64,000 bases of DNA, taken from Anaerolineae bacterium (GTDB lineage Bacteria > Chloroflexota > Anaerolineae > B4-G1 > SLSP01). A model generated the notes under the pieces. That model searched no databases. It was given only the letters and a program-made list of their open reading frames with translations, and was not told the DNA's origin. The DNA is taken from NCBI GenBank assembly GCA_035415725.1, contig DAOOGN010000001.1, positions 77,382 to 141,381 of the forward strand, given 5' to 3'. The stretch's first letter is position 1. Every line of letters starts with the position of its first letter. The translations under genes were made by a program, and so were the position numbers. Shown in pieces: positions 25,828-61,455 of this stretch.

Positions 25828-25844
25828 GGGAAGTGAGGGAAATA

Positions 25845-33535: not shown

Positions 33536-33672
33536 GGTTCTTTAGGATTTCGTGGGATCGAAATAAGAAACCGGCTACGGATTTACACGAAAAGTATAAA
33601 AAATGAAATCTGTGTCATCCGTGGCAAAAACTAAAGCCGTTTTTCCGTCACCACGCACAGTCCCAGAGAGCC
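33536..33672 (+). repeat. Conserved intergenic element, copy 1 (about 137 nt), candidate structured RNA or regulatory element
   Basis: About 80% identical to 61522-61670. Shared blocks are ggttct, aggatt, cgtgg, gaataagaaacc, cggattt, gtataaaaa, catccgtggcaaaaa, taaagc and gtttttcc. It contains a hairpin gCTACGGAT...ATCCGTGGc with one U-G wobble. Confidence 0.55.
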
Positions 33673-33707
33673 AATTGAGTCAAATCATCGCAGTGGGAGG
33701 AAGACAG

Positions 33708-34727: not shown

Positions 34728-34754
34728 CTGTTCATCTTGTCGAGAGGTGGAACA

Positions 34755-40482: not shown

Positions 40483-43400
40483 AAATAAAACTCAGGCCGA
40501 TGACCGGTTGGATTCCTCGCTTACGGAGACATCTGTAGGGGGGGAAGCGGCTGCCGCTACTCAGGCATTGCAGGACCTGGAAGCGCGCTATGCTTTCCTA
40601 CGGCAACTCTTGGATCTCAATCCGAATTTCTTCTTCGTGCGCGATCGTGAGGGGCGTTTTGTCTTTGCCAACAAAGCTCTGGCCGACGCTTATGGCACCA
40701 CGGTGGAAGCCTTGATCGGGAAGACGGACGCCGATTTCAACGCCAATCTCAAGGAAGTGGAAGCCATCCGGCAAAGCGACCTGGAGGTGATGGAATCTTT
40801 GCAGGAAAGATTTATCGCCGAAAGCCCCATTCTACGCAAGGGACGTTGGATGCAGACGACCAAACTGCCGATTGTGGATGCCCAGGGGGTGGCGCAGCAG
40901 GTACTCGGTATCTCCGCCGACATCACCGAACGTGTTCAGATGGAGGAAACCATCCGGGCGTCGCTGGAACGTCGTGGACGCCAGGTACAGACCGTTACCG
41001 AAGTCGCCCAGGAAATCGCCTCGGCCACAGCCTTGGATGAGCTGTTCCGCCGCGTCGTTACCCTGGTCAAAGAGCGTTTTGGCTACTATCACGCGCAAAT
41101 TTTCCGTTATGACGCCGCCGCGCGGGCGATGCGTCTGGTGAGCGGTTACGGCGTCGTGGGACAGCGTATGTTGGCTGCCGGCCATTACTTGCCGATGGGA
41201 CGGGGAGTGGTCGGCACAGCAGCCGCGACCGGACGGCCGGTGCTGGCATCTGATGTGACCCGCGACCCCGATTGGGTGCCCAATACTTTCCTGCCGGCTA
41301 CGCGCGGCGAACTGGCCGTCCCCATCAAATTGCGCGACCAGGTCCTGGGCGTTCTCGATGTGCAGAGCAACGTCACCGGCGCCTTAACGACCGAAGATCA
41401 ACTGTTGCTCGAGGGCCTGTGTGGTCAGATTGCCATTGCCATCCAGAGTACCCAATTACTTGAATCGGCCAACACCTTCCGCCAGGTGATTGAGTCCTCT
41501 GGACAGGGTATCTGTATGGCAACATTGGAGGGCGTTTTGACGTATGCCAATCCGGCCTATCGCGCCCTGGTTGGCTTGACAGACCCGGAGACATTGCCGG
41601 GACAACCCTTCCTCGCTCATTATCCTGAGATACTCCAGGGGCGTGTGCGTGAGGAAATTATGCCGGAGGTGTTGGCGAAAGGACAGTGGCAGGGTGAACT
41701 GGCCTTGTTGTCGGCGAGTGGTGAGGTGATTCCCACATTGGATATCCTGACCCTGGTGCGCGACGAACAGGGCGAACCCCGTTATCTGGTACGCCAGGTT
41801 ACCGACATCACTGCACGCAAGGCGATGGAGGATGCCCTGGCAACGGAACGTCAGTTGTTGCATGCACTGCTGGATAACGTGCCGGATCACATCTATTTCA
41901 AAGACGCCGAAAGCCGTTTTATCCGCATCAGCAGCGCTAATGCCCGCTGGCTCAATCTGGAGAATCCCTCGCAGGCGCTAGGAAAAACGGACTTTGACTT
42001 TTTCGGTGCTGAACATGCCGAGAAAGCCTATGCCGACGAACGTCACATCCTGGCTACCGGCCAGCCTATGCTCGATATGGAAGAGAAGGAGGTATGGCCG
42101 GATGGACATGAGACGTGGGTATCCACCTCCAAGATGCCGCTGCGTGATACTGAAGGGCGCATCGTGGGCACTTTCGGCATCTCGACCGACATCACGGCGC
42201 GGAAGCTGGCCGAAATCGAACGCGACCGGGCGTTGCGTAATATAGAGGTGCAGTCCCAGCAACTGAGCAACACCCTGACCGATATGACGCGCATCCAGGA
42301 GACCATGGCGGCTTTGACCGCGGCACTTACGTTTGAGGAAGCCGTCAACATCCTGCTATCCTCCGTAGTCGCGGCAGTCCAGGCCGACCGGGTCAGTATG
42401 TTCTTGATCAATAATGAACATATGACCCGCGTGGGTTTGTATCCTGGCGCTGAAACACAGCGCGCGCAGATTGGTGAAGCGCTGCCGCTGTCAAATTACC
42501 CCTTGACCAGACAGGTGGTTGAAACGCGCCGCCCGCGGGTCGTTGCCGGCGACTCGCCGGAACTTCAGGAACACGAACGGCGCGCTTTTGCCGCTGCTGG
42601 AATTGTGGCCCAAGCCATGGTCCCCCTCATAGGGCGTGAAGGTGTCGTGGGGCTCTTGGCGGTCAATCTCATGACCTCCAAGAGCGCCTTTACCGACCAC
42701 GATGTGCAGATATTGCAAATGTTGGCCGATCAAACTGCACTTGCCATCGAGAACATTCGATTGCTGGAGCGGACGCGCGTGCGCGCCGAGCGGGAGCGGC
42801 TGGTTCGTACCGTCATTGACCGGATTCGGCGCGGTACGGACCGCGATGCCATTATGCGCACGACGCTCCAGGAACTGGTGCAGATGCTCGACGCCTCTAA
42901 AGCCGTGATGCGTCTGGGCAACCGCGAGCAACTATTGTCGGCTCCAGGAGTGTCAACGTCGGCGTATGTTTATGCCAAAGGTGTGGACGGACTACGGACG
43001 GTTGCGGGCGATGATCGGGCCCTGGAGTTGGCAGCGCTGGTGGAAGCCGTGACGCAGGCAGCCACGGTTGCTAAGAAAGACCCTGCCGAAGGCCAGACGC
43101 TTGCCTTGCCTGTCACGTGGGGCGGTGAGACGATCGGCGTGCTGGGTTTTACCCGCCCGTTCGACCGCCCGTTGGATGATGACGAGATTGCAGCCGTCGA
43201 AGAGATCGTCGAACAGGCCGCCCTGGCCTTGGAGAACCAGCGGCTCTTCGATGAGACGCAGCGCGCCCGCGCGTTGTTGAGCAAACAAATCCGTGAATTG
43301 GACTGTCTGAACGACATCGGCCGCAAGATTGCCGAGTCGCCGGCGGTCCCTGACCTGTTGCAATGGACGGCGGAACGGATCCCTGCGGCCATGCAATACG

Positions 43401-44797
43401 CGGAGGTGTGTATCGCAGTGATTGAATACGCGGGACAGTTTTACGGGAATATCGAGGCTATTGACATGGCCCGCCAGATGGTTAACGGTTTGCGCAGCGG
43501 CGACGAAGAGGTAGGACGTGTCGTTGTGGCCTACACCGAAGATCACGTTTTCCTGGATGGCGAGAGCGCCTTGTTGGGTGATATTAGCCGACGTTTGACC
43601 GGCTACATTGAGAACCGCCAACTCCTGGAACAAACCGAGGCGCGCGCCGTGTATGAGCAGGCATTGCTTGAAATCGCCGGCAAAATTGGGACAAGTGAAG
43701 ACATGGAGGGCTTACTGGCCTCCCTTTCTGAAACCATCGTTCCTCTGCGCCGTTTGGCGCCGGTGGATTGGATGTCGGTAGCGGCGTATACTCCCGGTGA
43801 ATCGGCGGTGACGATCTTCACTGTGCCGTTGGAAGCTGAAGTCGGGCCTTTGAGTTTGCCGGCAACTCGCCTGGCCGTGGAGAATTCTGCGCCCGGTTGG
43901 GTCATCACCCACCAGAAGCCGTGGATAGAAGCGGATATGCGGCAGAAGATGACTTTCCCTGAAGATGCGGATTGGGTAGCGGCGGGAATTGTTTCACGGC
44001 TGCTTTTGCCGTTGCAGTTCGGCGATCAATTGGTAGGGACTTTGAATATGGGCAGCCGACAACCGCGGGCTTTCACCCAGGAGCATGGGATCTTGCTGGG
44101 ACAACTGGCTAACCAGTTGGCTCAAGCGATGGAACGCACGCGATTGTTGCAAAACACCCGCGCGGCGCTGGCGGCTGAGGCTGAAACGCACCGTAGCTAC
44201 GAACGCCGTGAATGGCAAACATACCTGCAAGAAAACCGCAAACTCCGTCAAAATACCTTTGTGTATGACGCTGTGACTCAGTCCGCTACCGATGCAGATC
44301 AGGTGGCCGTCCGCCCCGATTTTTGGCGCCCGGAGATGGTGCGTTCTTTGCGCGAAGCCGCCCCGGTGACGACCTACGATGAGGTTCATGCCGCACCCAT
44401 GGGGGATGGCGAGCCTGCCCCGACGACAGAAAAACGGTCCGGTCTGGCTATTCCCATCGAAATGCGCGGTCAGGTGATTGGAGTACTGGGGGTTGAAGAC
44501 CCTGAAGGGCGGTGGCGCGGCTCTCCCGATCAATTGGCCTTGATCCAGTCTGTCGCCCAGCAATTGGGTCAGGCATTGGAGAGTGCGCGTCTGCTCGAAG
44601 CGACACAACGGCGTGCCGCCCGTGAGCAGCGCGCGCGTGAGATCACCGACACCATTCGCGCTGCCCCCACCATCGAAGACGCAGTGAAGCGGGCTATCCA
44701 GGAAATCGCGCACGTTCTCAATGCTTCTGAAACAGTCGCCCGCCTGGGAACGGAAAACCTGTTGACGCCCCGTGAGGAAGGAGAGACTTATGAATAA
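40472..44797 (+). CDS. Cytoplasmic PAS-GAF-PAS-PAS-multi-GAF sensory protein (about 1441 aa), no output domain
   Basis: ATG at 40472 follows AAGGAGAAG and overlaps the upstream stop. PAS1 reads [17 protein letters not shown]...[29 protein letters not shown]. The GAF reads [34 protein letters not shown]...[27 protein letters not shown]. PAS2 reads [16 protein letters not shown]. PAS3 reads [18 protein letters not shown]...[30 protein letters not shown]. Several GAF-like repeats follow, with internal tail-like modules such as [44 protein letters not shown]. Confidence 0.86.
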   Translation: [1441 protein letters not shown]

Positions 44798-46196
44798 TGG
44801 AGCGCAGGCATCCACGGCGAATGTCATAACCGACAGCATACTGGTCGAAAATCAATCGCGGCGCATTCATCTCTTGCGCAGTGTGGCCTTGATCGTTTTG
44901 GCGGCATGTTCTGTGGTGTTGCTGGGTTACTTCATAGCTCTGTTTTTCATTCCCCATCTCCCTGTTTCACTGCCGGTTGTCGGCGCGATGGCGATCCTAT
45001 CTATGCTCGCTGTGCTTGTTCTGCTCACGCGGGGGCGCTTCGAACCGGCATTACGGCTCGGCATCGTGAGTTTGACCGCGATGTGGTTTGCGGCCATGTA
45101 TTTCCTCAACGGGACGCGGGGGCCGGCGATTTTACTGTCGCCGTTGATCATGTTGATTGCCGGTGTCATAGGTGAACGTCGTTATGCCCGGCCTACCAGC
45201 ATAGTCCATATAGTGTTCTATGGACTGTGCATAGCCTTAGAGTCCCTGGGAGTGATCACCCCTTATCAGATGACGGGACCGGCTTCCTGGGTGGCTTGGC
45301 TTGCATGTTTCATCTTGGCGGCTGTCATAATGATCATGATTAACCGACAGTTTATCGCGTATTTGGGGTATGCTCTCTCGGCTTCTCTGAAGCGCGAGGA
45401 AGCACTGGCGGAAATGAACCGGCTTGCACAGGCATCGGTGGACGCCGAGCGTATGGCACAGACGCAGGCCCAGGAGAACGCGCTCCAGCTCCAGGAAGTG
45501 ACGCAGGAATATGTCACTTTCCTGGAACGTATCGCCGCCGGCGACTACAGCGCCTCGTTGGACTTGAGTGCGTTGGCCGCTAGGCCAAATCTGCCACAGG
45601 AATTAGTCAGCTTAGGAGAATACATCAACACGACGGTTGTCAGTCTGGTATCGGCCTTGAATGAAGCGCAGAATGCCCAGCGAACTTACATGCGTCAGTC
45701 CTGGGAGAGTCTGATGGAAGCCGGCCGCATGCCCGGCGGCTATCGTTATCATGTGGATGAAGAGAGCCAAACAGAGCATGTGGAGATCGCCGAAGACGCC
45801 TGGCTGCCGCCGATGACCGAGGCGGTGCGTTCTCAAGAGGTCGCGGTCCGCCAGGATGAATTGGCGATTCCCATCGCTTCAGGGATGCGCGCGCAATTGA
45901 TCGGCGCGCTGGGGGTGCGCCGCAGCGGGCAGGAAGAATGGAGCGAAGATGAGCTGGCGCTGGTGACAGCGGTGACCGATCAATTGGCGCAAACATTGGA
46001 GAACTTGCGTTTGCTCGATGAAACGACACGCCGTGCAGCGCGCGAACAGATGTCGGGTGAAATCACCGCCCACATCCGTGAAGCAGTGGAAATCGAGGCG
46101 GTCCTGGAGCGCGCCTTGAGCGAACTGGGAGGCGCCTTGGCCGCCGACCGTGGTGCGGTGTATCTGGCGTTGAACGAACAGGAAAAGGCTGAATGA
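44790..46196 (+). CDS. Small membrane member of the family (TM helices, coiled coil, '[11 protein letters not shown]' helical segment, GAF-like C-terminus with tail); paralog of the gene at 25845
   Basis: ATG at 44790 follows GAGGAAGGAGAG and overlaps the upstream TAA; an alternative GTG start lies at 44772. The TM region reads [22 protein letters not shown]...[17 protein letters not shown]. The motifs [28 protein letters not shown] and [18 protein letters not shown] parallel [18 protein letters not shown] in the 25845 gene. Confidence 0.8.
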   Translation: [468 protein letters not shown]

Positions 46197-46248: not shown

Positions 46249-48042
46249 ATGATGAAATCGTGGGCTGAACAAAAGGCGGATTTAACGGCGGCATGGGACC
46301 GCTTCGTGACGGTCAATGTCCCTGATGAAGAGGAAGCGCGTCTGGGGCGTCTGTTTTGTGTGGTGATGGTGCTGACGTTTGTCCTGGCGCTGGCGCTGGT
46401 ACTGATCTTTGTGATTGCTACCACGCGTGATCTGTTCGCCACCCGGCTTCAGGGGTGGTTGGCGACGGCTTGCTCACTGGTTTTTGTGCCTCTATCGGTG
46501 ATAAGCTTCTTCCGCGCCAAGCAGGGGAACGTTTCTTCTATCGCCTCACTGTTTGTGTGGCTCAATTTTATCGGCATAGCGATAGCCGTTTTGGCCACGG
46601 ACGGCATAAACTCGCCTGTCTGGCTGCTGTTCTTTTGGCCGGTGATGCTGGCCGGCATGTTCTTGGGGCCGCGGAGTGGAGTACGTATGGCCTTCGGCGT
46701 TCTGATCTACTATGGTCTACTGGCGCTGCTGTGGACTTATGTCTTCAAAGTACCCGCGCCGGATTCCTCGGATTCCTCTGTTCGTCTTTTCTATTACCTG
46801 GTGCGGGCCTTTGGATTGTTAATGCTGGTGGCGGCAGCCGGCTTCCTGAATTATCTGAGTATGAGTAGCGTGCGCCAAAATCTGACCCGCACGCGGCTTA
46901 TCAGCCAGGATCTGCGGGCCACGCAGCGTCTGTTGGAGAGACGGGTGGCAGAGCGCACGGATGAATTGGCCAAACGCGCCGAACAGTTCAGGACGATTGC
47001 CGAGCTGAACCGTACCGTCGCCTCGGTTGCAGATATGTCCTTGCTGTTGAATACTGCTGTGCACTTGATTGCGGAACGTCTGGGGTACGATCATGTGGGG
47101 ATTTTCTTCGTCGATCCGCGCGGCGAATGGGCCGTCCTGCGGGCGGCTTCCTCAGAAGGGGGACAGCGCATGTTGGCGCGGGGCCACCGGCTGCGGGTAG
47201 GCCAACAGGGCATCGTGGGCTATGTGGCGGCGACGGGGCTGCCCCGCCTGGCCTTTAGCGTGGGTGAGGACGCCGTCTGGTTCAACAACCCTGACCTGCC
47301 GGATACGCAATCAGAGATAAGCCTGCCGTTGGTGGCACGTGGGCAGACGATCCTCGGTGTGCTGGACATTCAGACGCATGTCAGAGCCGCCTTTACGGAG
47401 GAAGACATAACCGTGTTGCGTATCCTCGCCGATGGTATTGCTGTCGCCGTGGCGAACTCGTTGTCTCTGGAAGAGACGACAACTGCCCTGGCGCGTCTGG
47501 AACGTTATCAAGAACAGGATGCTTTGCACGCCTGGCGTCAGGTCTTGGCCCGGCGGCGGATGCAGGTAGGGTACGGTTTTGAATCGGGCTTTGTTTATCC
47601 GGTGGCCGTGGAGTCTGTGGCGGAGGCTGAGGGGGGCGAATTAAGTGAAGTGACAACCCGTGTGACCGCTGATGGGCGGCACCTTTTGTTGGCGCCGATT
47701 CGTGTCCAAAACCGCAACGTAGGCGTGCTCTCGTTTGAAAAAACGGCGCCCTGGGTCGAGGATCAAATCCAGTTGACACGGTTTGTGGTCGAGCAGTTGG
47801 ACCTGGCGTTGGATAACGCACGTCTGCTCGAAGAGACACGGCTGCGTGCGAATCAAGAGCGTGCGCGCAGTGACATCGTGGGCCGCATCCGCGCCATGAC
47901 CAGCACTGATGCGATCTTGCGCAACGCTGCGCGCGAGTTGGGCCTGGCGTTGCAAGTCGAACGCAGTCGCATACAACTGTTGCCGCCCGGCGAGGGGCGC
48001 GTGGAAGGTCCGGCGCCGTCCGTGGCGCAAGAAGAGGCATAG
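46249..48042 (+). CDS. Multi-TM plus GAF-GAF sensory protein, no output domain
   Basis: Six TM helices. The GAF reads [60 protein letters not shown]...[30 protein letters not shown]. The tail is [53 protein letters not shown]. Confidence 0.86.
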   Translation: [597 protein letters not shown]

Positions 48043-48051
48043 ACGGGTCCT

Positions 48052-49137
48052 ATGAAGATGAAACGTTGGCGTCTGTGGGGGTTGATGATCGCTTTAGCTT
48101 TGGCCATGGCGTGCCAGCCGGCGCAGAGGGGGGCCTTGCCTGCCCCTGTACCGAACGCGCCGGCGCGGGATAAATTGCGCCTTTTCTGGGTCAACAGCTA
48201 TGCCGGCGAAGATGTATGGTCCCAACAAGTACGAACAGGCGTTTTGGAGACATTGGCGCGTAGCGGCTATACGCTTGTAGAGGGCACATTGGAAATGGAG
48301 ACCTTTAATATGGAGGTACAGCAGATCCCTATGATTGACGTCGCTACGCCGGCAGCCAACCGGGCCGTGGAGAAGATTCAGGCTTCCCAACCCGATCTGG
48401 TGGTCGTCGTTGGCGATGTGGCCTCACGTGCTGTCATTCCCCGCTATCCCGATCGCAGCCTCCCCTTTGTTCTGTGCGGATTTGTCGGTGATCCGGCAGT
48501 GTATGGTCTGAATCTACCTAACGTCACCGGAGTTTTGGAGGCCTTGCATCCTGTGCAGACGGTGGCGATGGCGTATGCCTTTGTCGAAGATGCCCAGCAG
48601 TATATGATCCTCAGTGATGGCTCGGTAGCAGGTAAAGCTCGTGCCCTGTCTGCTTATAGTGTTTTAGGACAGAGTGAATACGGCGCCTCGGCGTCATTGT
48701 TTAGGATGGTAGAAACGTGGTCCCGTTGGCAAACGACGGTGTTGGAAGACGCACGCGCCGTGGACTTTATCCTCCTGGCGAGTTATCAGGGTGTGGTGGA
48801 TGATACCGGAGCGCTCGTCGATGAGAAAGAGGTTCTGGCCTGGATGCAGGCTAACTCGCCGGTGCCGGTTTTCGCGTTGTCCGACTTCGCCATTGTCAAT
48901 GGGGCGGTCGGGGGTCTGGTTTCGTATGGCTATGAAGAGGGTGTTTCGGTTGGAGAGATCGTGGTGCGGCTTGCCGCCGGCGAGTCGCCGTCCGATATCG
49001 AGATTCGTGGGCCGGAGCGCAACCTGCTGGCAGTCAATCTGGCGGCCGTGCATCATTGGAACTTGCGCATCCCTATCACATTCCCGCTGGCGGCGCGCAT
49101 CTATAGCACCTTGCCCGCCTCACAAGGAGGTCGTTAA
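48052..49137 (+). CDS. PF04392/COG2984-type ABC-transporter solute-binding protein (secreted or lipoprotein); orphan, no permease or ATPase nearby
   Basis: The signal peptide is MKMKRWRLWGLMIALALAMAC. Family-like motifs are LRLFWVNSYAGEDVW...LPFVLCGFVGDPAVYGLNLPNVTGVLEA, similar to the PGGNITGV region of the 33708 gene. Its stop overlaps the next start as TAATG. Confidence 0.8.
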   Translation: MKMKRWRLWGLMIALALAMACQPAQRGALPAPVPNAPARDKLRLFWVNSYAGEDVWSQQVRTGVLETLARSGYTLVEGTLEMETFNMEVQQIPMIDVATPAANRAVEKIQASQPDLVVVVGDVASRAVIPRYPDRSLPFVLCGFVGDPAVYGLNLPNVTGVLEALHPVQTVAMAYAFVEDAQQYMILSDGSVAGKARALSAYSVLGQSEYGASASLFRMVETWSRWQTTVLEDARAVDFILLASYQGVVDDTGALVDEKEVLAWMQANSPVPVFALSDFAIVNGAVGGLVSYGYEEGVSVGEIVVRLAAGESPSDIEIRGPERNLLAVNLAAVHHWNLRIPITFPLAARIYSTLPASQGGR

Positions 49138-52100
49138 TGTCACAGAAGGGCCTGAGCCTGCGCTGGCGCATGATCTTGATCATCGCGGGTATCCCTTTGT
49201 TGCTCCTGGTGCCGGTTTTCATCTATGTGGGTAGTCAATACCGGGATGCTTACCGCCAGGCCTACTGGGGAAAGGGCGATTTGATCACCGTTCAGTTGCA
49301 GCAAACACTGGAAACTGTCGCGCCTTATGTCGAAACGTTCGCGGATGCGCCGGGATTGGCGACGCTTTTGCGAAAGGCCGTCGAGGGCAGCCCGGAGTTC
49401 GACTTCATTGCTTTGGTGGATAACACGGGCAGAGTGATCGAACACTCCACGCCGGGGTTCAAAGGCACCACCATAACCGAGTTGGCCGGTCTCGATGTCG
49501 CTGAACCCATTGAACGGCGCGAAGTGGCGGCCTTTGGTTCGGTCTATCTCATCTCACGGGCGGTTCCCATGCCCGGTGCAGGTGCCCCGGGGAGTCCCAC
49601 TCAGCAACTCTACATCGTCGTAGGAGAGCGGGCCGAGCTTGTTGACCCTTCGATGAGGGCATTGTTGCTCGTCGGCATCGTCGGGGCGGCGGGACTGATC
49701 GCGTTGTTGTACTTTTCGACGCAGAGACTGGTGTTGCAACCTCTCTCCCGTCTGGCGGAAGGGGCGCGGATCATGGGCGCCGGGGATTTGACCCACACCA
49801 TCTCCATCGAACGGGAGGATGAGATCGGTTCTGTAGCGCAATCGTTCAACGCCATGGCCTCACGCCTGCGCGAAATGGTGGCCGGTCTGGAGCAGCGCAT
49901 TGCCGAGCGTACTGCCGCGCTGGAGCGCCGGACACTGCAACTGGAGACTATCAGCCTGGTCAGCAAAGAAGCGGCCCAGGTGCGCAACGTTATCCTGCTT
50001 CTGGAGACGACCGTGCGGGCCGTTTCCGAGCGCTTCGGTTTCTACCATGTGGGGATTTTCATCCTCGACGATGCCAAGATGTGGGCCATTTTGCGTGCCG
50101 CTTCTTCGGAGGGCGGGCAGCGGATGTTGGCGCGTGGACACCGTTTACAGGTTGGGCAGACAGGGGTAGTGGGCTTTGTGGCCGGTTCTGGCAAGCCGCG
50201 CATCGTCTTTAACGTCGGCGAGGATGCCGTCTGGTTCAACAATCCTGACCTCCCGGCCACGCGCTCGGAGATGGCTTTGCCGCTGCTGGTGGAGAATGAA
50301 GTCATCGGCGTCCTGGACGTGCAGAGTGACGTCCCTCATGCCTTCACCGATGAAGATATCAGCACGCTGCAACTGCTGGCCGACCAGTTGGCCGTAGCGC
50401 TTAACAACGCGCGTGCGCTCGAACAGATGGAAAGCGCGCTGGCCGAAGTTCATGCTCTGCAAGTTGAGTACAGCCGTCAGGGATGGGCACGGATCGCGGC
50501 TCAGACGCGCCCCCTGGCTTACGAATATGATCGGGTGGACGTAAACCCGGTGGCCCCGCTTCCCGTGCCCGCCGAATTGCGTGACGGACGTGCGTCGCGC
50601 GCTCAGCTCATGGATGGCGGCGTGCCGGTGATGATGGAAACATTGCGGGCCGGCGACCGCGTGTTGGGCTATTTGGGACTGGCCGACTCGCAGCACACCT
50701 GGTCCGCCGAGGAACTGTCGCTGGTCGAGAGTGTCGGTGAGCAGGTAGCTCTTGCCCTGGAAAACGCCCGACTCTTTGAAGAGTCTCAGCAGAGCCAGCG
50801 CCAGCAAACCCTCATCAGTAACGTCTTGCAGGTGGCCTCCAATCCCGACCTGAGTTTTGAAGAAGTTTTGGCGGAGATCGCCCGTATTTTGGCGCAGGCG
50901 TTGAATATGGCCGTGGGAATTTATACCTTCCCTGTGCCCAACTTCCCGCGTGTGCAACCCCATGCCGTTCTTGATCCTGCTGGAAAGCGCTTGCCCTTCC
51001 CCGACGAACCCCTCTCGCTTGCCGATGAACATTTCACTTTCCTCCGTGGACTGCGCCGCGCCGAGTTAGGGCCGCTTTCGCCGCTGCTGGGTGGCGTCGA
51101 GCTGACGCCGGATAGCCAGGAATTGCTGTCGCCTTACACCTTGGGGTGCGTGTTCTACGTCCCGTTGGGCAGTGGCGGCTCGCAGCGCGGTTTTATGGCC
51201 CTGCTTCAACCTCAGGACAATGTGTTGCCGCTCGACTCTGAGACCCGCGACCTCGTCCAGCGCCTGGCTAATCAGATTGAAGTTGTTTTGGATAACCTGA
51301 CGCTGACCGAAGAGACGCAGCAACGCTCCGAAGAACTGCGCTCTCTCTACAACATCTCTTTGGTCCTGAGCGAGTTGCTGGAGCCAACGGATGTATTGTC
51401 GGCGATTGTGCAGCAAGGGGAAACACTGCTCGAGGCGGACGGGAGTGAGTTCTTCGAGTACGAGGCCGAAACCGACGCCTTGATTTTGACGCTGGCCCCG
51501 GCGGATGGTTCCATGGGACAGGTGGGACTGCGGTTGCAGCGCGGCGAGGGATTGGCGGGAGAAGCCCTGGATAAACAACAGACGCTCTTTGTCGAGGATG
51601 AGGAGGCCGGGGATAAACGTCTGCCTGCTCCCGGTGGAACGCGCTTTCATGCCAGCATGGCCGTGCCTCTAAGCGGACGGTTTGGTCCGCAAGGGGTGCT
51701 GGTCTTGCACGCCGAAGAAGTCGCTGCCTTTGGCGAGCGAGAAGTGCGTCTGGCTAACCTCTTTGCTCAGCAAGCGGCCGCCGCTTTGGATAACGCGCGG
51801 CTGAACAAAGACGCGCAACGTCGTGCGGAAGAATTCTCCCTGCTCTCCCAGGCCGGCATCGACTTGCTGCCTATTCGGGATGTGGAACAGCTTCTCGCGC
51901 GTGCTGCCGATTGGGCCCGCCGGGTTTTTAACGTGCCGCGTGTCATGATTTATCTGCAAGACTCGGCTACAGGACACTACTTGCACGGGTTAAGCGTGGA
52001 TGCTGCCGAACACAGTTGGCAAGAACAGGAAAGGGTGATGCCTACCCCCGGTGGTCTGACGGAAACCATCATCGCTACCCATGAGAGTGTCCTGGTTCGA

Positions 52101-53642
52101 GATACCCGTGAACATCCCAGTGTCAGCAGTCGGCGGTTGGCCGAGTTGGGACTGCTGTCGCGCATGGGGGTGCCGCTGCGCGTCGGTGAGGATGTGTTAG
52201 GGGCACTCCTGGTCGCCGGCACCGCCGTCAACCAGTTTAGCGAGCGTGAACTGAATATGCTGGAGTTTATGGCGACGCAAATTTCTTCGGCGATCCAGAA
52301 CGCCCTGCAATTCGGTCGCACGGAAGCGGCGTTGAGCGTGGTCCGCCGACAGGCGCGCTATCAGGCCAACGTCTCGCAGGCCGCGGCTCTGCTGACCGAG
52401 CGCGGCACCGAAGCGGTTTTCGATGTACTGCGTTTACTTGGTGAAGCCTCGGCGGCTCAAGGCGTTCTCTATCTGGAGTATCATGCGGCGGAAGATAATG
52501 TCGCCATGGAGGATGCGGTCGGAACCGTTGCCGGCGACTCATACTGGCAGTCCCGGGCAATGTGGATGGCAACGACGCTCCCCACCGACGGGGTTGACAC
52601 GGCGTTGCTCGATCACCTCTCTCTGGAGCGGATGCAGCCCTGGGCCGATCAACTCATCGGCAAACCCTACCTGACGCTCCAACCCGAGGCCCTCCCTGAC
52701 TCGGAGCGGGAACTGATGCAGGCGCTTGGTTTTAACACGCTGTTGGTGTTGACCGTGCGGGGCGAGGCCCTTTATCCTAATGTGATCCTGATAGGCCGCG
52801 CCGACGCTGAAGGGGCCTGGGTGGAAGACGAAATCGTTGCCATGCAGACGGCTGCGGCCACACTTTCTAACACCATTGCGCGTGAACGGGTCTTCCAGGA
52901 AGTTCAGACCTCGCGCACCGAGACTGAAGCCCTGTACCGTGGAAGCGCCGAGTTGAACCTGGCGCAATCTTACGACGGCATCCTGAACGTGTTGCGTACC
53001 CACACCGTCCTGGGGCAGGGCGCCTATCACATGACGTTGCAACTCTTTGACCATCCCTGGACGGATGAGAGCGAACCCCAGTACGCCGAAGTCGTGGCGC
53101 ACTGGACGACCACCGACAGGAGTATGCTGCGGGAGCGGGTATGGCTTGATGATTTCCCGGCCGCGCAGGAATGGGGCCGTCATCCCGGCATGATCGTCCT
53201 GGATGATGTGGAAAATAACCCGCTCTTGAGCCGTAAAAACCGCGCTCTGTTCTCCCGGGTATTCGGCGCCAAGACAGTGATTCTGGTGCCTCTGGTGGCC
53301 AGTGGTCAGCGGATCGGTTTTGTGCATGCGATGTATCCTCAATCCATGGCGTTCTCGGAACAGGAACGTCGCCGCCTGGAAAGCCTGACACAGCAGGCGG
53401 CCATCGCCACGCAGAACCGATTGCAACTGTTGACCATTGAAGCGCGGGTCAATCGGGAGCGGATGATCCGTGAAATCACCGAACGCATTCAGGCTGCACC
53501 GGATGTGCAAGGGGTGTTGCAAGCTGCCGTGCGCGAATTAGGGCGGGCCTTCGGGACGCCGCGCAACCGGATCCAGTTCCGCTCGCCCGGTGAATCGACC
53601 GGCACAGGAACTGATGGAGACGAAGAGAATGAGAGGGAATGA
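49137..53642 (+). CDS. TM-periplasmic sensor-TM-HAMP plus about six tandem GAF domains, sensory protein (1501 aa), no output domain
   Basis: TM1 is [22 protein letters not shown]. A periplasmic segment of about 150 aa follows. TM2 is [19 protein letters not shown]. The HAMP region is [33 protein letters not shown]. GAF1 reads [60 protein letters not shown]...[29 protein letters not shown]. Further GAF-like repeats follow. The tail is [45 protein letters not shown]. Confidence 0.87.
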   Translation: [1501 protein letters not shown]

Positions 53643-53678: not shown

Positions 53679-56600
53679 ATGGAATGGTTCTTGGACAGCC
53701 GTATATCCACCGGCTGGGAAAGGTTATTGGAAATGACGAAAAAGCGTAAAGAAAAACTGGCTGAGGAATTCATCGACGCCCGCACCGGGGACACTCTGGA
53801 TCAACAAACGGGTGAACCTGCGCCCTGGTTTGAGTTGACCCAGGCCGCGATGGCGGAAATCCTCGCAAGACTCTTTGATACGGTCACATGGATGCCCTTG
53901 AGCGAAGCCACCGTGCATGGGATCATCGCGCGCGAGCCGTTGACGGTCCATACTTACACGACTACCCTGGTGGGTGATGAACGACAGACGCAAGGGACTT
54001 ACGCGACGCCTCTTGAGGATATCAATGGCTGGCCGGATCAACCACACCAGGTCATCTTCTATGATAACCCAGAGGACCACAGTGTAGCCATGCCGGAGTC
54101 GCTACGCGCGCGCATGGTGCAGAGGGGATATCGTTCAGCATTGACGACCGGCTTAATGGCGCATGGGGAACTGGTCGGTTTCCTCACCTTGAGCAGTACA
54201 GCTTCCCTCCCTGACGGTGCTCAATCTGAGATTCAAGATGCCGTTGGCGTTCTGGCCGATTCCATTGGAGTGGCACTGGATAGCCTCTTGCAGGGTGAAC
54301 AGACGCGCCGGCGTACTGAACAACTGGAAACACTGAGTGTGATTGAATCCGCACTTTTGGAAACCAGTACCGAAGCTGAGATCCTGGATGTGTTTATACT
54401 GGCCCTGAAAAACACCGCCACCCTCACGGCCTGGTTAGTGTATACTGACGCCGATGCCGGCGGGACGCTGACGTCGCAGATTGTGGCTTCCTGGCATGAG
54501 GGGGGCATTCAGCCTCAAGATTCTTTACTGCATCATCCGCTGTTCCCGGATACTTTTCCCATGTCGCGTTTGTGGCTGGGCGATCTGGATCAGACTTTTT
54601 ATACCTTCGATCTCCGCCAGGACGTTCAGATGGACGTTCGTGCGCGCGAATGGGCGGTCAAGTACGGTTTTGTGTCGGTTGTCGTGCTTCCGCTGCGGCA
54701 TGATGGGCATTTGCAGGGTGTCATCGTCCTCAACTGGACCGAACCTTACACCTTGTCAGATACAGAGCGATTCCTTTTGCGACGTTTGCTGCGCCCGACC
54801 GTAGCATTGCTCTCGCGGCGGCGCGCTTACCTTGCCGAAGAGGCGGCGCGTGCTGAAAATGAGCGCCGTGCGACACAATTTCAAACCGCCGCGGAAGTCG
54901 CGCACGCGGCCTCCTCCATCATCGATCTGGACACCTTGTTGCCGCAAGCCGTGGAACTGCTCCGCGAGCGCTTTGACCTTTACTATGTCGGCGTTTTTCT
55001 GGTTGATGAGACGAAGCAATGGGTAGCGCTGCGCGCCGGTACGGGCGAGGCCGGTCGTACCATGTTGGAGCGCCGTCACGGTTTCGCCGTGGGTGGCAAC
55101 TCCATGATCGGGCGGTGTGTGGCCGAAGCCACGCCGCAGATTCCTGAAAGTGTCGAAGCGGCGGTACGTTACGTCAACCCGCTCCTGCCCGACACGACGG
55201 CAGAAATTGCTCTGCCGTTGGTCAGCCGTAACCAAATGATCGGCGCTATGTCGATCCAATCGAGCAAAGTGCGTGCCTTTTCTGTGACCGATATCACCAT
55301 CTTGCAGACGGTTGCTGACCAGTTAGCCAATGCAATTCAGAACGCCCGGCTGTTCGATCAACTCAATACCTCGCTGGTCGAAAGTGAGATGCAGACGGAA
55401 GTGAGCCTGGCGATCAACGAGGCGCAGTCTGTCAGTGAAATTGCGCGCGCGGCGGCGCGAGTGGCTGAGTTTATGGGCCTGGAGGGCGTTCTGCTGCATG
55501 ACTTCACCCGCTGGGATGAGGCCGGACGACCTGTGAGCCAGGACATTTACAGCCTGGTCATGCATGAAACCGCCGCCGAATCCAACGTCGTGGAGAATAT
55601 CGAAGTTGACCAGGAGTTGTTAGACTGGATCCTCGCCGACATACGCCGCATCTATGTCAGCAGGGACCTGGTCGCCGATCAGGAGTTGCCTGAGTCGGTG
55701 CGGGCCAACCTGCTGGCGCAGGGATATAACAGTATGATTGGTGCCGTTGTCAGCACGCGGAGCCGCCTGTTAGGCTTTTTGATCATGCATAGCACCCAGC
55801 CGGTGGAGGAGTTCCCGACTCGTTATATCCAGGTTTTCGTGCGGACTTTAACGGATCAGGTCTCGACGGGATTGGAGCGTTACACCTTGCTCCGTGAAAG
55901 CGCGCGGCGCGCGGCGCGCATGGAGGCGGCCTCTGAGATTGCCCGTTATGCGGCGTCGATTCTGGATCAGGAGACGTTGCTCACCGAGGTTGCCAAACTG
56001 ATCCGCGAGCGTTTCCATATTGACTACGTGGGCATCTACATGGTCGATGATTCGGGTCAATGGGCCGTCTTACACGCTGCTAGCGGAGGTGGAGAGGGTA
56101 GCAACGCCGCGCTGCCAGGCGTGGCGCAGGGACAACGCTTAGCGGTAGGGGGAGATACCATGGTGGGAATGTGTGTATCTACCGCTACTCCACGTGTGGC
56201 TTTGGCTATAGATGAAAAATCGCCGCCGTTTGACGTCGCTACGGCGCCCGGAACCCGTTCGGCCATCGTGTTGCCGCTTATCAGCCAGAATGTCGTCATT
56301 GGAGCCATCGCTATGAACTCCCTGGAGGCAGCGGCCTATTCCCAAGAGGATATGGCGATCTTGCAAACAATGGTTGACCACCTGACGACGACCATTGGCA
56401 ATGCGCGGCTTTTTGCCCAGTCCCAGGCTAGCCTGGAAGAGTTACAGCGCGTCCAGCAACGTTACGCTGTGGAAACGTGGGATAGCTACGTCGAAAAGCA
56501 AGACATTGTCGGCTATGCTTATGATTTGAACGCCATGACCCCCTTGCCTGTCGAGCAGGCCGATGTGCCGGCTGACTTCTGGGGCGGCCAACTCTTCATG

Positions 56601-59600
56601 CGCAGTGGCGAAGACGGCGGAGATGGGGCCACGCTGGCCGCGCCTTTCGCCGTCAGGAACGAGCCGGTGGGTTTCATGAGTTTTGAAGAGCCTGGCAAGT
56701 CACGAACGTGGACTGATGATAACGTTGCCGTCATTGAAGCCGTGCGGGAGCAGCTTTCTCTGGCCCTGGAGAACCGTCTGTTGATCGACCAATCCCAAAA
56801 TGCACTGCGTGAAGCCCGGCAGCGTGAGCGCGAAGTCCGTTTCTTGCAGGAAGTCGCCGCCTTCTTGAATGCGACCGAGAGTATCGTGGCTTCTCAGGGC
56901 GAATTGCGAGATCATTTGCAAGCCTTCATCCCGCTGGACTCACTGTCCATCGTGGGATATGACGCCAATCGTAGACTGTATTTCGTGGGCGAGCAGACCG
57001 CTAACGTGCTCGATCCTCAGGCCTGGAGCGGCGTCGAAGTGGGAGAGGGGACGGGGTACGCCTGGGTCGTCGAGATGAATGAACCGCTGGTGAGTGATGA
57101 CATCCGTCAGACGCCGCGTTTCCGGGAGGATGAGACGCTCATCGCGGCCGGCATAACGTCGCGCGCGGTCATGCCCTTGCGCTTAGGCGTGCGCACGCTG
57201 GGTACGTTGAACCTGGAAAGCCGTCAGCCCGGCGTGTTCTCCCGTCCGGAGCTGATGCCCATCCTCTTGCAGGTGACGGCGCAAGTCGCCTCGGCGATGG
57301 AGCGTGCCAACCTGCTTCAGCGCGCCCAGGAAAGCGCCGGCGAGTCGCGTACCCTTTATGAAGCGACCAGTGCGCTGGCCGAGGCCACCAGCTATGAGGC
57401 CGTCCTACGGGCCATCGTCGGCCACACGATTTTGTCCGAAAAGGCCTGGGCTGAAATCGCGCTGTTCGTCGTTGACCCTGAGACCGGCGCCGCACACAAT
57501 CTGCTGGAAATCGTGGGTTCGTGGAGCAGCGTCCCCTCAGCAGGAGAACTGGAAGTCGGGCAACGGATGGGGCTTGCGGAATTCCCGGCACTGCAACTCA
57601 TTCCCCCGGAACAGCAACTGTACATCTGTGAAGACATCGATAGGGCGACGGACATGCCGCCGGCGATCCGCAGTTTCTATCTGGAACAGGGGGTGCAGGC
57701 GTTGGTCATAGCGCGTCTTTCGACGGGAGGGGGCGCCCCTGGCGGCGAGCTTGGCCTGTTCCAGCTTCGCTTCGTGGAGCCTTATCATCCCTCAGAACAG
57801 GATGTGCGTCTCTACGATAACATCGCCGATCAGGCTGCCGTCGTGCTTTCTAACCAGCAACTCCTGCGACTTTCTGAGGCGCGCACCGAGCAATTGACCG
57901 CTGCCGTAGACTTTGCGAACCTGGCGACGGCCCTCTCTGAACGCGAAGATTTACTGAAGAAATCGGTCGACTTTTTCAAGACGCGCTTTGGTTTCTATTA
58001 TGTGAGCATTTCGATGTTGGACGAGGAGGGCGAATGGGCCGTCCTGCAAGCGGGGACCGGCGATGTTGCCGAGAAGTTGCTGCGGATGGGAACGCGGGTG
58101 CGCGTCGATACCAGCTCGATGATCGGCTGGTGCATCCTCAATGACCAACCGCGCATCGCCCAGGATGTGACGCGCGACCCGCTGTACTTTGAAAATCCTC
58201 TCTTGCCGAACGTGCGGTCGTCGATTGCGCTTCCCCTCAAGAGCCGTGGACAGGTCAATGGTGCCCTCACCATCGACAGTGACCGGCGGTTTGCGTTCAC
58301 CGGTGAAATCATCTCGACCCTCGAACTGATGGCGACGCAACTGGCGAATATGATTGAAAGCGCCGACTTGTACGACCGTTCACAAAGCTCGCTGGCCGAA
58401 ACGCGGATGTTGTATCGCATCGCGCAGCAGATTACCGACGCGCTGACCGTCGAGAATGTCTTCAAAGCTGCCGTCGAAGGGATCTCGCAGCGTCCTGAGC
58501 CGGACCTGATCGTCGCCGCGCAGTTGGAACCGCGTCAGACGCCGACGTCGATGCGCATTGTGGGGTCGTGGAGCCGCGATGGCGTACCTTTACCTTTTGA
58601 GGCGTACTCGTTCGAGCAAATCCCCCGCCTGGCGGCCATACTACGGGATGATGAGAGTTTTGTCACGCCCGATGTGACCCAGGACCCCCAGGTCGACGAA
58701 TTCTTCCGTGCCATGTTCGGGCAACTGGGACTGCGGGCGATGGCCGCTTTCCAGTTGCGCATTTACGGTGTGCAGTACGGTACGGTGATGATTCACAGTC
58801 GCAAGGCGCGAGAGTTTTCGAACACGGAACTGCGTTTTTATGAAAACGTGTCCCGCCAGGCTTTCGTTGCCCTCCAGAATATCAACCTTGTGGAAGAGAC
58901 GCGGGAACAGGCGGAGCGGCGCGACATCCTCAATGAAGTATTGCGTACCGCCTCCAGCTCCCTGGATAGGCTGTCGCTGCTGCGCGATGTCGGCAGAGTC
59001 ATCGCTACTCGTCTGGAACGCCCGGTGCTGATGTGGAACTGGGACAATCAAATGCTTACCGTGGTCTCTGGGCATGAAGCCGGCGGAAAACTGATGACGA
59101 ATGGAGACTCTCCGCCGTCTTTGACGCGCACGGATGCCCCCTTGCTTTATCAGGTCGTCGACAGGATGATTCCGGTCTCCATCGACTTTATGCAAGAGCA
59201 CGGGCCTGTGCTCGAACGCTCATTTGCCCATTTCGATCAGCCTCTCGTCGAAGGTTACGCCGTTCCCTTGCGGGTGCGCGGGACAGTCTTCGGCATTATG
59301 CTCTTGGGGCGTCATGAAGACCATCCACCCTTCGATGAAGAAACCAAAGATTTTATGCGGACGGCCGGCGTCAACGTCAGTGTTGCCTTGCAGACGGCCA
59401 TTCTTTATCAGGATGCACAGGAAACCGCCGTCAAGCTGCAGGAAGTCGATAAGCTCAAGAACCAGTTCATGGCGAACATGTCCCATGAACTCCGCACTCC
59501 GTTGAACTCCATCATCGGATTCTCACGGGTGATCTTGAAAGGTATCGACGGCCCATTGACCGACATGCAAAAAACAGACCTGACGGCCATTTACGAAAGC

Positions 59601-60920
59601 GGGCGGAACTTGCTGGAATTGATCAATGACATCCTGGACATTTCCAAGATCGATGCCGGCAAGATGGAAATGGCCTTCGAGCCAACCAATTTGCAGGAGA
59701 TCGTCCGGAGCGTCGTCACCACCATAGCGGGACAATTGATGGACAGCCCGGTCGAAGTCTTGACGGATGTGCCGGAGGAATTGCCGGTGGTCTTGGCCGA
59801 TAGCCGGCGTATTCGGCAGGTGTTGACGAACCTGGTGGGTAACGCGGTGAAATTCACCGACCATGGCTACATCAAGATCTCCGCTTCGTACGACAACTAC
59901 CGGGTGATTATGAGCGTTGAGGACACCGGCATTGGCATTCCTCCCGACCGTCGCCAGGCCGTTTTTGAGAAATTTGAACAGGTGGATTCTTCCTCAACGC
60001 GACGCTATGGCGGCACGGGTCTGGGCTTACCTCTTAGCCGCGAGTTCGTCAGACTCCATGGCGGTGACATGGATTTTGAAAGCGTGCCTGGGGAAGGTTC
60101 GCGCTTCTTCTTCTGGATCCCCATCGGTGGGCCATCGGCCAAACGTGAAGGAGAGGATAAAGAGACTCAGCAAGCCGGCGTTCGTACCATTCTCACCATC
60201 GATGATGATGAAGGCGTCATTACCCTCTTCCAGCGTTACCTGGAAAAGCAGGGTTACAACGTCGCCGGCATGACGACCGGTGAAGGTGTCGTCGAAACCG
60301 CCAAACGCTTGAAACCCTATGCGATCACGTTGGATGTGATTATGCCGGGGAAGGACGGTTGGCAGATCATCCAGGAACTGCGCGCCGATCCAGAAACCCG
60401 CGATATCCCCATCATTGTCTGTTCCATTCTCAGTGAAGCCGATAAGGGGATGAGCATGGGCGTCGCCGACTATCTGGTGAAACCGATCACCGAGCAGGAC
60501 TTGCTCGATGCACTCAGGCATTTGGAGCAGCCGGGCGCCGTGGGACACGTGTTGGTCGTGGATGATAACCCCGATGACCGGAAATTACTGCGGCGCATCC
60601 TTGAGGACGGTGGTTATAAAGTCGAGGAGGCGACCGGAGGCGCAGAGGCCATCGATGTCATTCACACGGACCCGCCCAATTTGCTCATCCTGGATTTGAT
60701 GATGCCGGATGTCGACGGCTTCGCGGTGTTGGAGAATCTCAAGATGTCGCCGCTTACCCGCGATATTCCCGTAATCGTTGTGACGGCCAAAGAACTCAGC
60801 AAAGCCGAACGTGAGCGCCTGCAACAGCGGGTCGAAGCATTATTGCAAAAAGGGCTGTTTGACCAGAATCAATTGCTCAACGACGTTCTCTCTGCTTTGG
60901 AACGCTTGAAGGGGACTTAA
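53679..60920 (+). CDS. Giant multi-GAF hybrid histidine kinase (about 2413 aa): at least 10 tandem GAF domains, HisKA, HATPase_c, REC, REC
   Basis: The repeated GAF signatures include [55 protein letters not shown]...[55 protein letters not shown] and [34 protein letters not shown]. The H-box is [33 protein letters not shown]. The ATPase region reads [23 protein letters not shown]...[38 protein letters not shown]. REC1 reads [18 protein letters not shown]...[11 protein letters not shown]. REC2 reads [18 protein letters not shown]...[14 protein letters not shown]. The start is uncertain; an alternative ATG lies at 53739. Confidence 0.88.
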   Translation: [2413 protein letters not shown]

Positions 60921-60943: not shown

Positions 60944-60980
60944 CCCTCTTGCTCTCCTTCCCCAGGGAAGAGGGATTTTT
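60944..60980 (+). terminator. Intrinsic terminator candidate after the giant GAF histidine-kinase gene
   Basis: The stem is ccctctt ... aagaggg, followed by a TTTTT run at 60976-60980. It lies 24 nt after the stop at 60920. Confidence 0.55.
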
Positions 60981-61194: not shown

Positions 61195-61455
61195 ATGGCT
61201 TATGTGATTACTGACATTTGTGAACGCGCTGGCATGTGCGTTGACGTGTGTCCGACAGACTCCATTCACTTTGTGGAAGGTGACCCTAAGTGGCCCACCT
61301 ACTACATCAACCCTGACACCTGCATTAGCTGTGGCGCGTGTGCTGCGGAGTGCCCCAACGAGGCGATCTTCGATGAGGCCGATGACGAGGCGGCAGATTT
61401 CGTGCAGAAAAATGCTGATTTCTATACCAAAGGCCCCGGCAAAGATTTGATTTAA
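61195..61455 (+). CDS. fdxA: 7Fe ferredoxin ([3Fe-4S][4Fe-4S]), FdxA-like
   Basis: The 86-aa product reads MAYVITDICERAGMCVDVCPTDSIHFVEGDPKWPTYYINPDTCISCGACAAECPNEAIF. It has a Cx5Cx3CP motif plus a CxxCxxCxxxCP motif, a 7-Cys pattern like the actinobacterial and Thermus 7Fe ferredoxins. A strong SD (AGGAGG) sits 7 nt upstream, with an upstream sigma70-like promoter and a downstream intrinsic terminator. Confidence 0.9.
   Translation: MAYVITDICERAGMCVDVCPTDSIHFVEGDPKWPTYYINPDTCISCGACAAECPNEAIFDEADDEAADFVQKNADFYTKGPGKDLI

Follow-up and report, generated by a model that had tools for sequence, protein, structure and literature searches.

What is the role of a very long, GAF-rich protein encoded at the end of a run of sensor-like genes, and how is it tied to the genes that precede it? 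The DNA considered here (the window) is a stretch of 64,000 nucleotides from an Anaerolineae bacterium, taken from contig DAOOGN010000001.1, a 101.8-kb metagenome assembly. Window positions 1-60920 hold 24 co-directional open reading frames (ORFs) on the forward strand, numbered g01-g24. The last of these, g24 (53679..60920, +), encodes a protein of 2413 amino acids (aa), referred to below as the hub. The initial annotation described it as an exceptional array of at least ten GAF domains feeding a single kinase, each GAF perhaps pairing with one of the free GAF-only sensors encoded upstream. The analysis below points to another arrangement. On balance, the hub is probably a soluble poly-GAF hybrid kinase that serves as a shared transmitter for receptors without outputs, through contact with a C-terminal module that these receptors have in common.

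The hub ORF begins with an ATG. The identical NCBI protein is listed as 'GAF domain-containing protein [Anaerolineae bacterium]' with a length of 2395 aa, as would be expected if translation began at M19 (ATG at 53733). The M19 codon is preceded by GGAAAGG and has the better ribosome-binding context, while the first ATG, at 53679, has no purine-rich site. The choice between these two starts is immaterial for the findings reported here. The protein has no strong transmembrane (TM)-like segment, the single weak window being at aa 861 within one of its GAF units (S5), and it is predicted to be soluble.

The C-terminal portion of the hub consists of one HisKA domain, one HATPase_c domain and two receiver (REC) domains, as the initial annotation had proposed, and the catalytic residues are intact. 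HisKA, the dimerization and histidine phosphotransfer (DHp) domain (59457..59660, +; PF00512, aa 1927-1994), scores 70.4 bits against a cut-off of 26.9 and carries the H-box S-H1936-ELRTP with H1936 as the phospho-acceptor. HATPase_c (59799..60125, +; PF02518, aa 2041-2149) scores 101.8 bits and contains all of the expected boxes (N 2051-2060, G1 2082-2087, F 2096-2102 and G2 2111-2117). Receiver 1 (60186..60524, +) covers about aa 2170-2282 with D2175/D2176, D2219, S2249 and K2268, and receiver 2 (60549..60881, +) covers aa 2291-2401 with D2295/D2296, D2339, T2369 and K2391. The two PF00072 (Response_reg) stretches sum to 145.6 bits, and both phospho-acceptor pockets are intact. By these sequence features the hub is a HisKA-class hybrid histidine kinase. 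A Pfam scan of the hub finds no Hpt domain. The kinase core and first receiver are closest to the NCBIfam models for BarA, TorS, ArcB and LuxQ (E 1e-98 to 1e-68). Membership of a named hybrid-kinase family is ruled out, as all NCBIfam scores fall below their cut-offs (BarA 330 versus 890 bits; TorS 289 versus 676). The kinase core is also 44% identical over 251 aa (E 1e-71) to that of the kinase encoded at window positions 1-1689 (g01). Both of the peptides quoted for this comparison in the initial annotation are found, and the paralogy that it inferred for the two cores is upheld.

The region ahead of the kinase (aa 40-1925) was cut into 11 segments, S1-S11, and each was scanned alone against Pfam. 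In addition, alignments of 8-43 orthologues per segment were compared with canonical GAF, profile against profile. A profile built from the GAFs of the window identifies three strong units (416-554, 763-907 and 1421-1560) and eight weaker, regularly spaced ones, and the canonical units S3, S5 and S9 score 151-176 bits against it. Six of the 11 units (S3, S4, S5, S7, S9 and S11) pass a Pfam gathering cut-off for GAF, GAF_2 or GAF_3, with S4, S7 and S11 above one when scanned singly. Four others (S1, S2, S6 and S10) fall below the Pfam thresholds, with E values of 5e-5 to 3e-4, and S8 has no Pfam match when scanned alone. In hhalign comparisons all 11 segments match GAF with a probability of 78-100%, S1 and S6 over the C-terminal 46 columns only, and S8 and S10 are tied to S2 and S4 at 98-99%. 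The predicted minimum of ten tandem GAF-type modules is therefore reached, with 11 counted, of which only six exceed curated thresholds, one (S6) is a mini-module and four (S8-S11) are assigned by profiles only.

An all-against-all matrix separates these units into two classes. Class I consists of S3, S5 and S9 together with the more distant S7 and S11. Class II consists of S1, S2, S4, S8 and S10, which match one another at 91-100% over 144-182 columns. S6 is outside both classes and forms a reduced module of about 100 aa ('mini-GAF'). The order of units along the hub is II-II-I-II-I-mini-I'-II-I-II-I'.

The class II unit S1 (53796..54308, +; aa 40-210) matches Pfam GAF at E 2.8e-4 and S4 at 100% by hhalign, is modelled with an alpha/beta fold and is variable among orthologues. 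S2 (54291..54863, +; aa 205-395), also modelled and of class II, matches GAF_2 at E 1.2e-4 and reaches 96.5% over 133 columns by hhalign. The canonical GAF S3 (54876..55373, +; aa 400-565) contains the conserved C480 and is followed by S4 (55356..55913, +; aa 560-745), a modelled class II unit that scores 27.3 bits against the Pfam GAF cut-off of 22.4. A second canonical GAF, S5 (55926..56423, +; aa 750-915), carries the conserved C832. S6 (56421..56798, +; aa 915-1040) combines the mini-GAF with a highly conserved connector helix, and its BLAST matches are the C-terminal tails of g21, g13, g11 and g10. S7 (56796..57323, +; aa 1040-1215) is a modelled, class I-related GAF with 39.4 bits for GAF_2, and its nearest relative is aa 1092-1240 of g19. 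S8 (57306..57893, +; aa 1210-1405) is a class II unit related to aa 1251-1440 of g23, with hhalign probabilities of 94% to canonical GAF and 98-99% to S2, S4 and S10. The third canonical GAF, S9 (57891..58388, +; aa 1405-1570), carries C1485. S10 (58371..58913, +; aa 1565-1745), again of class II, matches GAF_2 at E 4.5e-5, canonical GAF at 78% and S8 at 99% by hhalign. The last unit, S11 (58911..59453, +; aa 1745-1925), scores 34.8 bits for GAF_3, reaches 94.8% over 137 columns by hhalign and adjoins the kinase, with a spacing of only about 20 residues between its end and the H-box.

An AlphaFold2 model of hub aa 1-1200, computed with 30 orthologues, has a mean pLDDT (predicted local distance difference test) of 79. 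It contains seven alpha/beta modules, S1-S7, spaced by helices about 45-53 residues long. S1-S5 and S7 adopt a GAF-type fold with block pLDDT mostly about 75-93, and S6 is modelled with low confidence as a small sheet of four strands at 943-1002. The best Foldseek matches of this modelled half are helix-linked tandem GAFs (PDE5A, PDE6, PDE2A and CyaB2) and phytochrome GAF-PHY.

The hub contains just five cysteines in 2413 aa: C480, C832, C1485, C1317 and C2248. The first three occupy one and the same 'SM(I/V)G.C' position in the canonical GAFs and are kept in 39 of 40, 41 of 42 and 26 of 42 orthologues, respectively. The same GAF cysteine is present in g06, g07, g10 and g16 and is missing from the g04/g14/g17/g21 cluster. 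These cysteines may hint at thiol or redox chemistry. A simple pattern test for the NKFDE signature of cyclic nucleoside monophosphate (cNMP) binding (NK...F...DE) finds no match in the hub, nor do the bilin-type cysteine motifs CH and DXCF (D.CF). With these signature motifs missing, identity of the hub as a photoreceptor or cNMP sensor is ruled out.

Orthologues at 40-81% identity retain everything from S3 through the second receiver, module for module, with S1 and S2 alone varying. S8, which Pfam does not see, is as conserved across orthologues as the neighbouring units. The densest invariant run of the N-terminal 1200 aa is the helix after S6 (invariant residues 1022-1064). No DNA repeats of 30 nt or more are found within the hub ORF, which indicates that the duplications are old, and in BLAST comparisons the canonical units are 32-41% identical to one another. 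Recent internal duplication is ruled out by the lack of DNA repeats, the low identity between units and the orthologous conservation of each one. The GAF chain thus appears to be old, with each unit under purifying selection. Such chains are not unusual in this lineage, and the description of the number of GAFs as exceptional does not stand. Hub homologues of 1400-3400 aa are common among metagenome-assembled genomes (MAGs) of Anaerolineae, and related clusters end in hybrid kinases with 2, 3, 5, 5, 9, 10 and 16 units. In a search of 1.84 billion representative proteins with the profile of the tail module described below, the 150 top matches are about 1100-3950 aa long with 5-21 matched stretches each. 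The library searched includes proteins of up to 3952 aa with 20-21 profile-matching stretches, GAF chains far longer than that of the hub.

The genes that precede the hub give it its context. The cluster as a whole spans about 63 kb and comprises two REC genes, the kinase g01, 20 receptors, two solute-binding proteins and, at the 3' end, the hub; g01 and the hub are the only kinases of the gene run. Intergenic gaps of -107 to +129 nt with several 4-nt overlaps indicate operon-like packing. Base composition is uniform across the window (GC about 0.58), with a positive GC skew along its whole length. In the 20 receptors Pfam identifies input domains and GAF only, and no output domains. The inputs vary widely. 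MASE11 is present in g02, g03 and g14, dCache_1 and/or HAMP in g04, g07, g09, g16 and g23, LacI-type Peripla_BP cores in g05, g06, g08, g10 and g12, and PAS in g10 and g19, while polytopic membrane regions serve as input in g11, g13, g17, g18, g20 and g21. The upstream proteins are therefore not the 'free GAF-only' sensors of the initial annotation, as they carry MASE11, dCache, HAMP, PAS or LacI-type binding-protein inputs. Pfam detects no MCPsignal (0 of 24), CheW or CheA (P1-P5) domains in the window proteins.

The receptors share a C-terminal tail. After the last canonical GAF, the alignment shows a connector helix, a mini-GAF of about 100 aa, a conserved helix with the consensus ...EQLGVALESARLYQDTQRRAAREQ..., and a stub of about 45 aa followed by the stop codon. 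The mini-GAF matches the C-terminal half of GAF only. The stub resembles the start of a GAF, with two helices and a strand-like h.h.h motif directly before the stop, and hhalign places it on GAF columns 1-31 with 59% probability, which is suggestive but not strong. A hidden Markov model (HMM) of the tail module finds a complete C-terminal copy in 17 proteins and a partial one in g02, g05 and g23; by this HMM it is not found as the C-terminus of g01, the hub or the binding proteins g15 and g22. The one copy in the hub is internal, at aa 908-1050 (87 bits), and corresponds to the mini-GAF/helix element S6. Assignment of the tail to another known domain was rejected, since ten tails of 95 aa scanned against Pfam yielded nothing beyond noise and weak matches to GAF N-terminal positions.

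The C-terminal half of g16 (aa 390-738) was modelled with AlphaFold2 at a mean pLDDT of 85. The model begins with a GAF and a 52-aa helix; the mini-GAF (beta-beta-alpha-beta-beta) comes next and is followed by a helix of 47 aa, another short one and an unfolded end. It aligns to the GAF-A/GAF-B tandems in the structures of CyaB2 and PDE2A. Among stop-codon-ended ORFs in 82 fetched loci, 441 of 514 complete tail copies stop no more than 40 aa past the stub (median 9 aa). The stub therefore appears to be under constraint. Its partner may be its own mini-GAF, which the stub would complete by folding back as in a circular permutation, the dimer mate or a kinase. At E<=1e-30 the tail-module profile matches 13,589 cluster representatives; since the profile is partly generic GAF, this figure sets an upper limit to the size of the family.

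The same architecture recurs in other MAGs. Scanning the tail-module alignment over one genome per species confirmed 374 stretches, of which 80 (74 loci) were retained. All 80 derive from MAGs of uncultured organisms, which carry the label Anaerolineae, Thermoflexales or Chloroflexota except for one 'uncultured bacterium' and one MAG labelled Phycisphaerae; one locus is from a closed chromosome. MAG names point to digester- or wastewater/sludge-type metagenomes for the lineage. The gene order binding protein, HAMP-multi-GAF protein, hub, ferredoxin is preserved around hub orthologues of 73% and 48% identity, and homologues at 30-47% identity are also 3'-terminal in arrays of output-less dCache-HAMP-GAF genes. 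A 5' end of the form REC-REC-kinase without receiver is found in L008 (the present contig), L038, L054, L057 and L071, and in L030 and L060 a kinase lies at the 5' edge of the fetched DNA. The 3' end consists of a hybrid kinase with a REC protein after it in L001-L007, L047, L070, L074 and L075, and tail-bearing receptors occupy the middle. Where the 3' boundary is visible it is a hybrid kinase in nine of 12 cases, the other three running off the locus within a GAF ORF. Among loci found without the hub as bait, all four resolvable 3' ends are hybrid kinases. The bracketing of the array by two related kinases, which the initial annotation had noted, is thus confirmed and is kept in other MAGs. 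Because the 3' hybrid kinase and the bracketing recur, the receptors and the terminal kinase are plausibly linked in function, and the gene order suggests that the hub acts as the transmitter of receptor signals. Distant arrays also contain a ParA/MinD-like ATPase before the terminal kinase and a fusion of PALP, a pyridoxal phosphate (PLP) enzyme, with REC after it (L006 9253-10029 and 20279-21958; L007 8631-9407 and 16929-18602). The PALP-REC fusion could be an enzymatic output and has no counterpart in the window.

Receptors without enzymatic output would most likely signal by protein-protein contact. In the mechanism proposed here, built on the observed domain anatomy and cluster architecture, the receptors would dock via their common C-terminal module onto the cluster kinases, and the poly-GAF hub would be a shared transmitter on which, much as in chemoreceptor arrays, many receptors converge. 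The hub is probably dimeric. A conformational change would run along the helical GAF spine into the DHp domain and set the autophosphorylation of H1936. Phosphate would then presumably pass to the receivers within the hub, to the REC-only proteins from the 5' end of the cluster, or to both of these, and so presumably toward a final output. A wider form of this proposal is more tentative and, in our estimate, falls somewhat short of an even chance. It describes a distinct receptor-array system of Anaerolineae/Thermoflexales in which dozens of receptors with MCP-like inputs (MCP, methyl-accepting chemotaxis protein) dock on kinases by their GAF, mini-GAF and stub, possibly at S6 or by donation of the stub's helix and strand. 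Such a system would be a GAF-based counterpart of chemoreceptors and CheA.

Several observations weigh against the hub as shared transmitter. The second kinase of the cluster, g01, is an equally possible target of the receptors. Neither an Hpt domain nor a response regulator that carries an output domain is encoded in the window. Gene order indicates a link but neither its direction nor its mechanism; moreover, L001-L007 were fetched via hub homology and are biased toward the terminal kinase, and only four unbiased loci resolve the 3' end. The AlphaFold2 model leaves the last strand of the stub unfolded (helix 304-319, then a low-confidence end) and gives no clue to a partner, and the GAF assignment of S8-S11 in the hub derives from sequence-profile comparison alone. 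Finally, ligands could be bound by the GAFs of the hub itself, which are strongly conserved.

This last point leads to an alternative that we regard as rather unlikely, in which the hub acts as an autonomous integrator of several ligands. Every GAF of the hub, or every class II/I pair, would bind a small cytoplasmic ligand of its own, and the receptors would be merely co-regulated or act via g01. Purifying selection on every unit is what ligand pockets would show, the pocket-region cysteine of the three canonical GAFs is kept in 26-41 of about 40-42 orthologues, and the hub is soluble, with solved tandem-GAF relatives that bind small molecules. However, the hub lacks the signatures of cNMP binding (NKFDE) and bilin binding (CH, DXCF), and such an integrator leaves unexplained why about 20 output-less receptors occur in one operon-like unit with the kinase in many MAGs. 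It also leaves unexplained the internal mini-GAF/helix copy of the hub, which holds the most invariant residues of the N-terminal 1200 aa. The first kinase is the centre of a different and still less probable alternative, in which this membrane kinase, g01, is the true transmitter for the receptors and the hub a phosphate sink or phosphatase partner. Under the control of its GAF chain, the hub would mainly remove or buffer phosphate carried by the REC-only proteins. The array does lie between two kinases whose cores are 44% identical, with two REC-only proteins before g01, and the hub has two receivers and no Hpt, a layout compatible with the sink behaviour of other phosphorelays. Yet the fetched DNA of L070 contains a terminal hybrid kinase and no 5' kinase, and the hub keeps all residues needed for kinase activity. 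The roles of sink and transmitter are not mutually exclusive.

The docking originally suggested, with every hub GAF dedicated to one stand-alone GAF sensor, is very improbable. GAF domains are known to dimerize in tandem-GAF proteins, and the hub and receptors share a canonical GAF family, S3 being 59-63% identical to the GAFs of g06, g10 and g16 compared with about 39-41% to S5 and about 37% to S9. The numbers nearly match in L070, a small cluster in a closed genome, where there are three units and four receptors. Elsewhere the counts disagree, with 11 units and 20 receptors in the window, two and at least four in L047, and five and at least seven in L074, so that one hub GAF per sensor is not sustained. 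Cognate pairs are absent as well, as the canonical hub GAFs fall within an array-wide family: S3, S5 and S9 have one common set of nearest relatives (g06, g10, g12 and g16) rather than a nearest neighbour each, and the receptor GAFs fall into two clusters of mutually similar paralogues. Relatives of class II are found within the hub and in g23 only, leaving five hub units without a counterpart in the simple receptors; the relative of S7 is in g19, and S6 matches the tail of every receptor. The GAF phylogeny suggested in the initial annotation as a check therefore yields no one-to-one pairs, and it gives no purely internal origin of the hub GAFs either. The shared transmitter remains the reading that we prefer.

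The individual genes of the cluster are as follows. L008 6752-10004, directly upstream of window position 1 on the same contig, contains two REC-only genes, of 128 and 139 aa, and then g01 in full length, with unrelated genes before them. The 5' kinase g01 (1..1689, +) has a HAMP-GAF-HisKA-HATPase arrangement without receiver; it is cut by the window edge and is 783 aa long on the contig. Three receptors combine MASE11 with GAF: g02 (1686..3578, +), which has a diverged, partial tail, and g03 (3610..5337, +) and g14 (31807..33534, +), which have the tail module. A polytopic membrane region with GAF and tail module is found in g04 (5365..7938, +; also with HAMP), g13 (30043..31791, +), g17 (36898..38649, +), g18 (38665..40482, +) and g21 (46249..48042, +). 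The arrangement dCache_1, HAMP, GAF and tail module is shared by g07 (13460..15805, +), g09 (18654..21605, +; also with TM segments) and g16 (34737..36953, +), the receptor modelled above. Soluble g19 (40433..44797, +) contains three PAS, about five GAF and the tail module, and g23 (49137..53642, +), directly before the hub, contains TM segments, HAMP, multiple GAFs including the class II unit, and a partial tail. Two further genes, g11 (25824..27191, +; six TM-like segments) and g20 (44772..46196, +; five), have no canonical GAF and appear as minimal receptors, their TM segments joined straight to the mini-GAF and stub of the tail module.

Five genes have a LacI-type Peripla_BP (Peripla_BP_3) core fused to GAF and/or tail. 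They are g05 (7954..10035, +; partial tail), g06 (10165..13374, +; GAFs and tail module), g08 (15802..18657, +; GAF and tail module), g10 (21499..25827, +; GAF, PAS, GAF and tail module, start codon uncertain) and g12 (27240..30125, +; GAF and tail module). None of the five has a helix-turn-helix domain. TM-like segments are absent from g05, g10 and g12, and one weak segment is present in each of g06 and g08. By their sequences these fusions look like cytoplasmic sugar or metabolite sensors after loss of DNA binding. The two solo ABC_sub_bind binding proteins are g15 (33603..34727, +), 9 nt before g16, and g22 (48052..49137, +), which overlaps g23 by 1 nt. Their position directly before these receptors suggests binding-protein-assisted sensing.

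Downstream of the hub, a terminator-like hairpin and T-run (60957..60970, +; consensus match only) lies 37 nt past the stop codon, and a promoter-like site at 61104-61131 matches the sigma-70-like consensus at 11 of 12 positions. The next gene (61195..61455, +) encodes a ferredoxin of 86 aa with two [4Fe-4S] motifs, which follows hub orthologues in synteny down to 48% identity. Co-transcription of the ferredoxin and the hub is doubtful despite this conserved synteny, given the hairpin and promoter match between them. The first gene outside the cluster (61679-62797, -) encodes an apparently unrelated CehA/McbA-family metallohydrolase (NCBIfam 98 bits, cut-off 80).

Taken alone, the hub is an ordinary though very long hybrid histidine kinase that is already in databases under a generic name. 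Its importance lies in its surroundings: a conserved super-operon of output-less receptors that share a GAF-based module, framed by two kinases and REC-only proteins. The common tail module of the receptors is the more novel point. No description of these receptor arrays or of their common module was found in the searchable full-text literature, which does not cover subscription journals, and there is a moderate chance that they represent a separate kind of signalling not described before. Should the receptors indeed act through the cluster kinases, this would be a second design, besides chemotaxis arrays, in which many receptors converge on one kinase, and it would account for a large share of the 'GAF domain-containing proteins' of Anaerolineae. 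The truncated-GAF stub offers a concrete handle on how output-less receptors might transfer their signals.

The hub resembles several known systems and differs from each of them. The tandem GAFs of PDE2A, PDE5A, PDE6 and CyaB2 are the best structural matches of both models and, like those of the hub, are carried on long continuous helices; in each case the signal would run down a helical spine to a C-terminal catalytic domain. The PDE and CyaB2 proteins have two GAFs and bind cNMP via NKFDE, whereas the hub has eleven units, no NKFDE, a mini-GAF and a histidine-kinase output. Multi-GAF phytochrome and cyanobacteriochrome kinases also carry serial GAFs before HisKA and HATPase domains, sometimes with receivers, and GAF-PHY is among the top fold matches. 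Unlike these photoreceptor kinases, the hub lacks the bilin CH and DXCF cysteines, has only five cysteines in total and derives from non-photosynthetic Anaerolineae. Its core resembles those of BarA, TorS, ArcB and LuxQ; however, it has a second receiver in the place of an Hpt, no periplasmic sensor and no TM segment.

For the receptors, NreA-NreB offers a precedent, in which a stand-alone GAF protein without enzymatic output controls a sensor histidine kinase by binding it directly (PMC8774646). There the GAF protein, NreA, consists of one soluble GAF and acts on one kinase, whereas here about 20 multi-domain, mostly membrane-bound receptors with a common module would make such a contact. The solo ABC_sub_bind genes directly before g16 and g23 recall TorT-TorS and LuxP-LuxQ; unlike TorS and LuxQ, these two receptors have no kinase domain of their own. 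At the level of the whole cluster the likeness is to MCP-CheA-CheY arrays, which also combine many receptors (dCache, HAMP, PAS and binding-protein partners) with one C-terminal signalling module, few kinases and single-domain REC proteins. No MCPsignal, CheW or CheA domain occurs in the window and the common module of its receptors is GAF-based, so the resemblance is one of analogy only.

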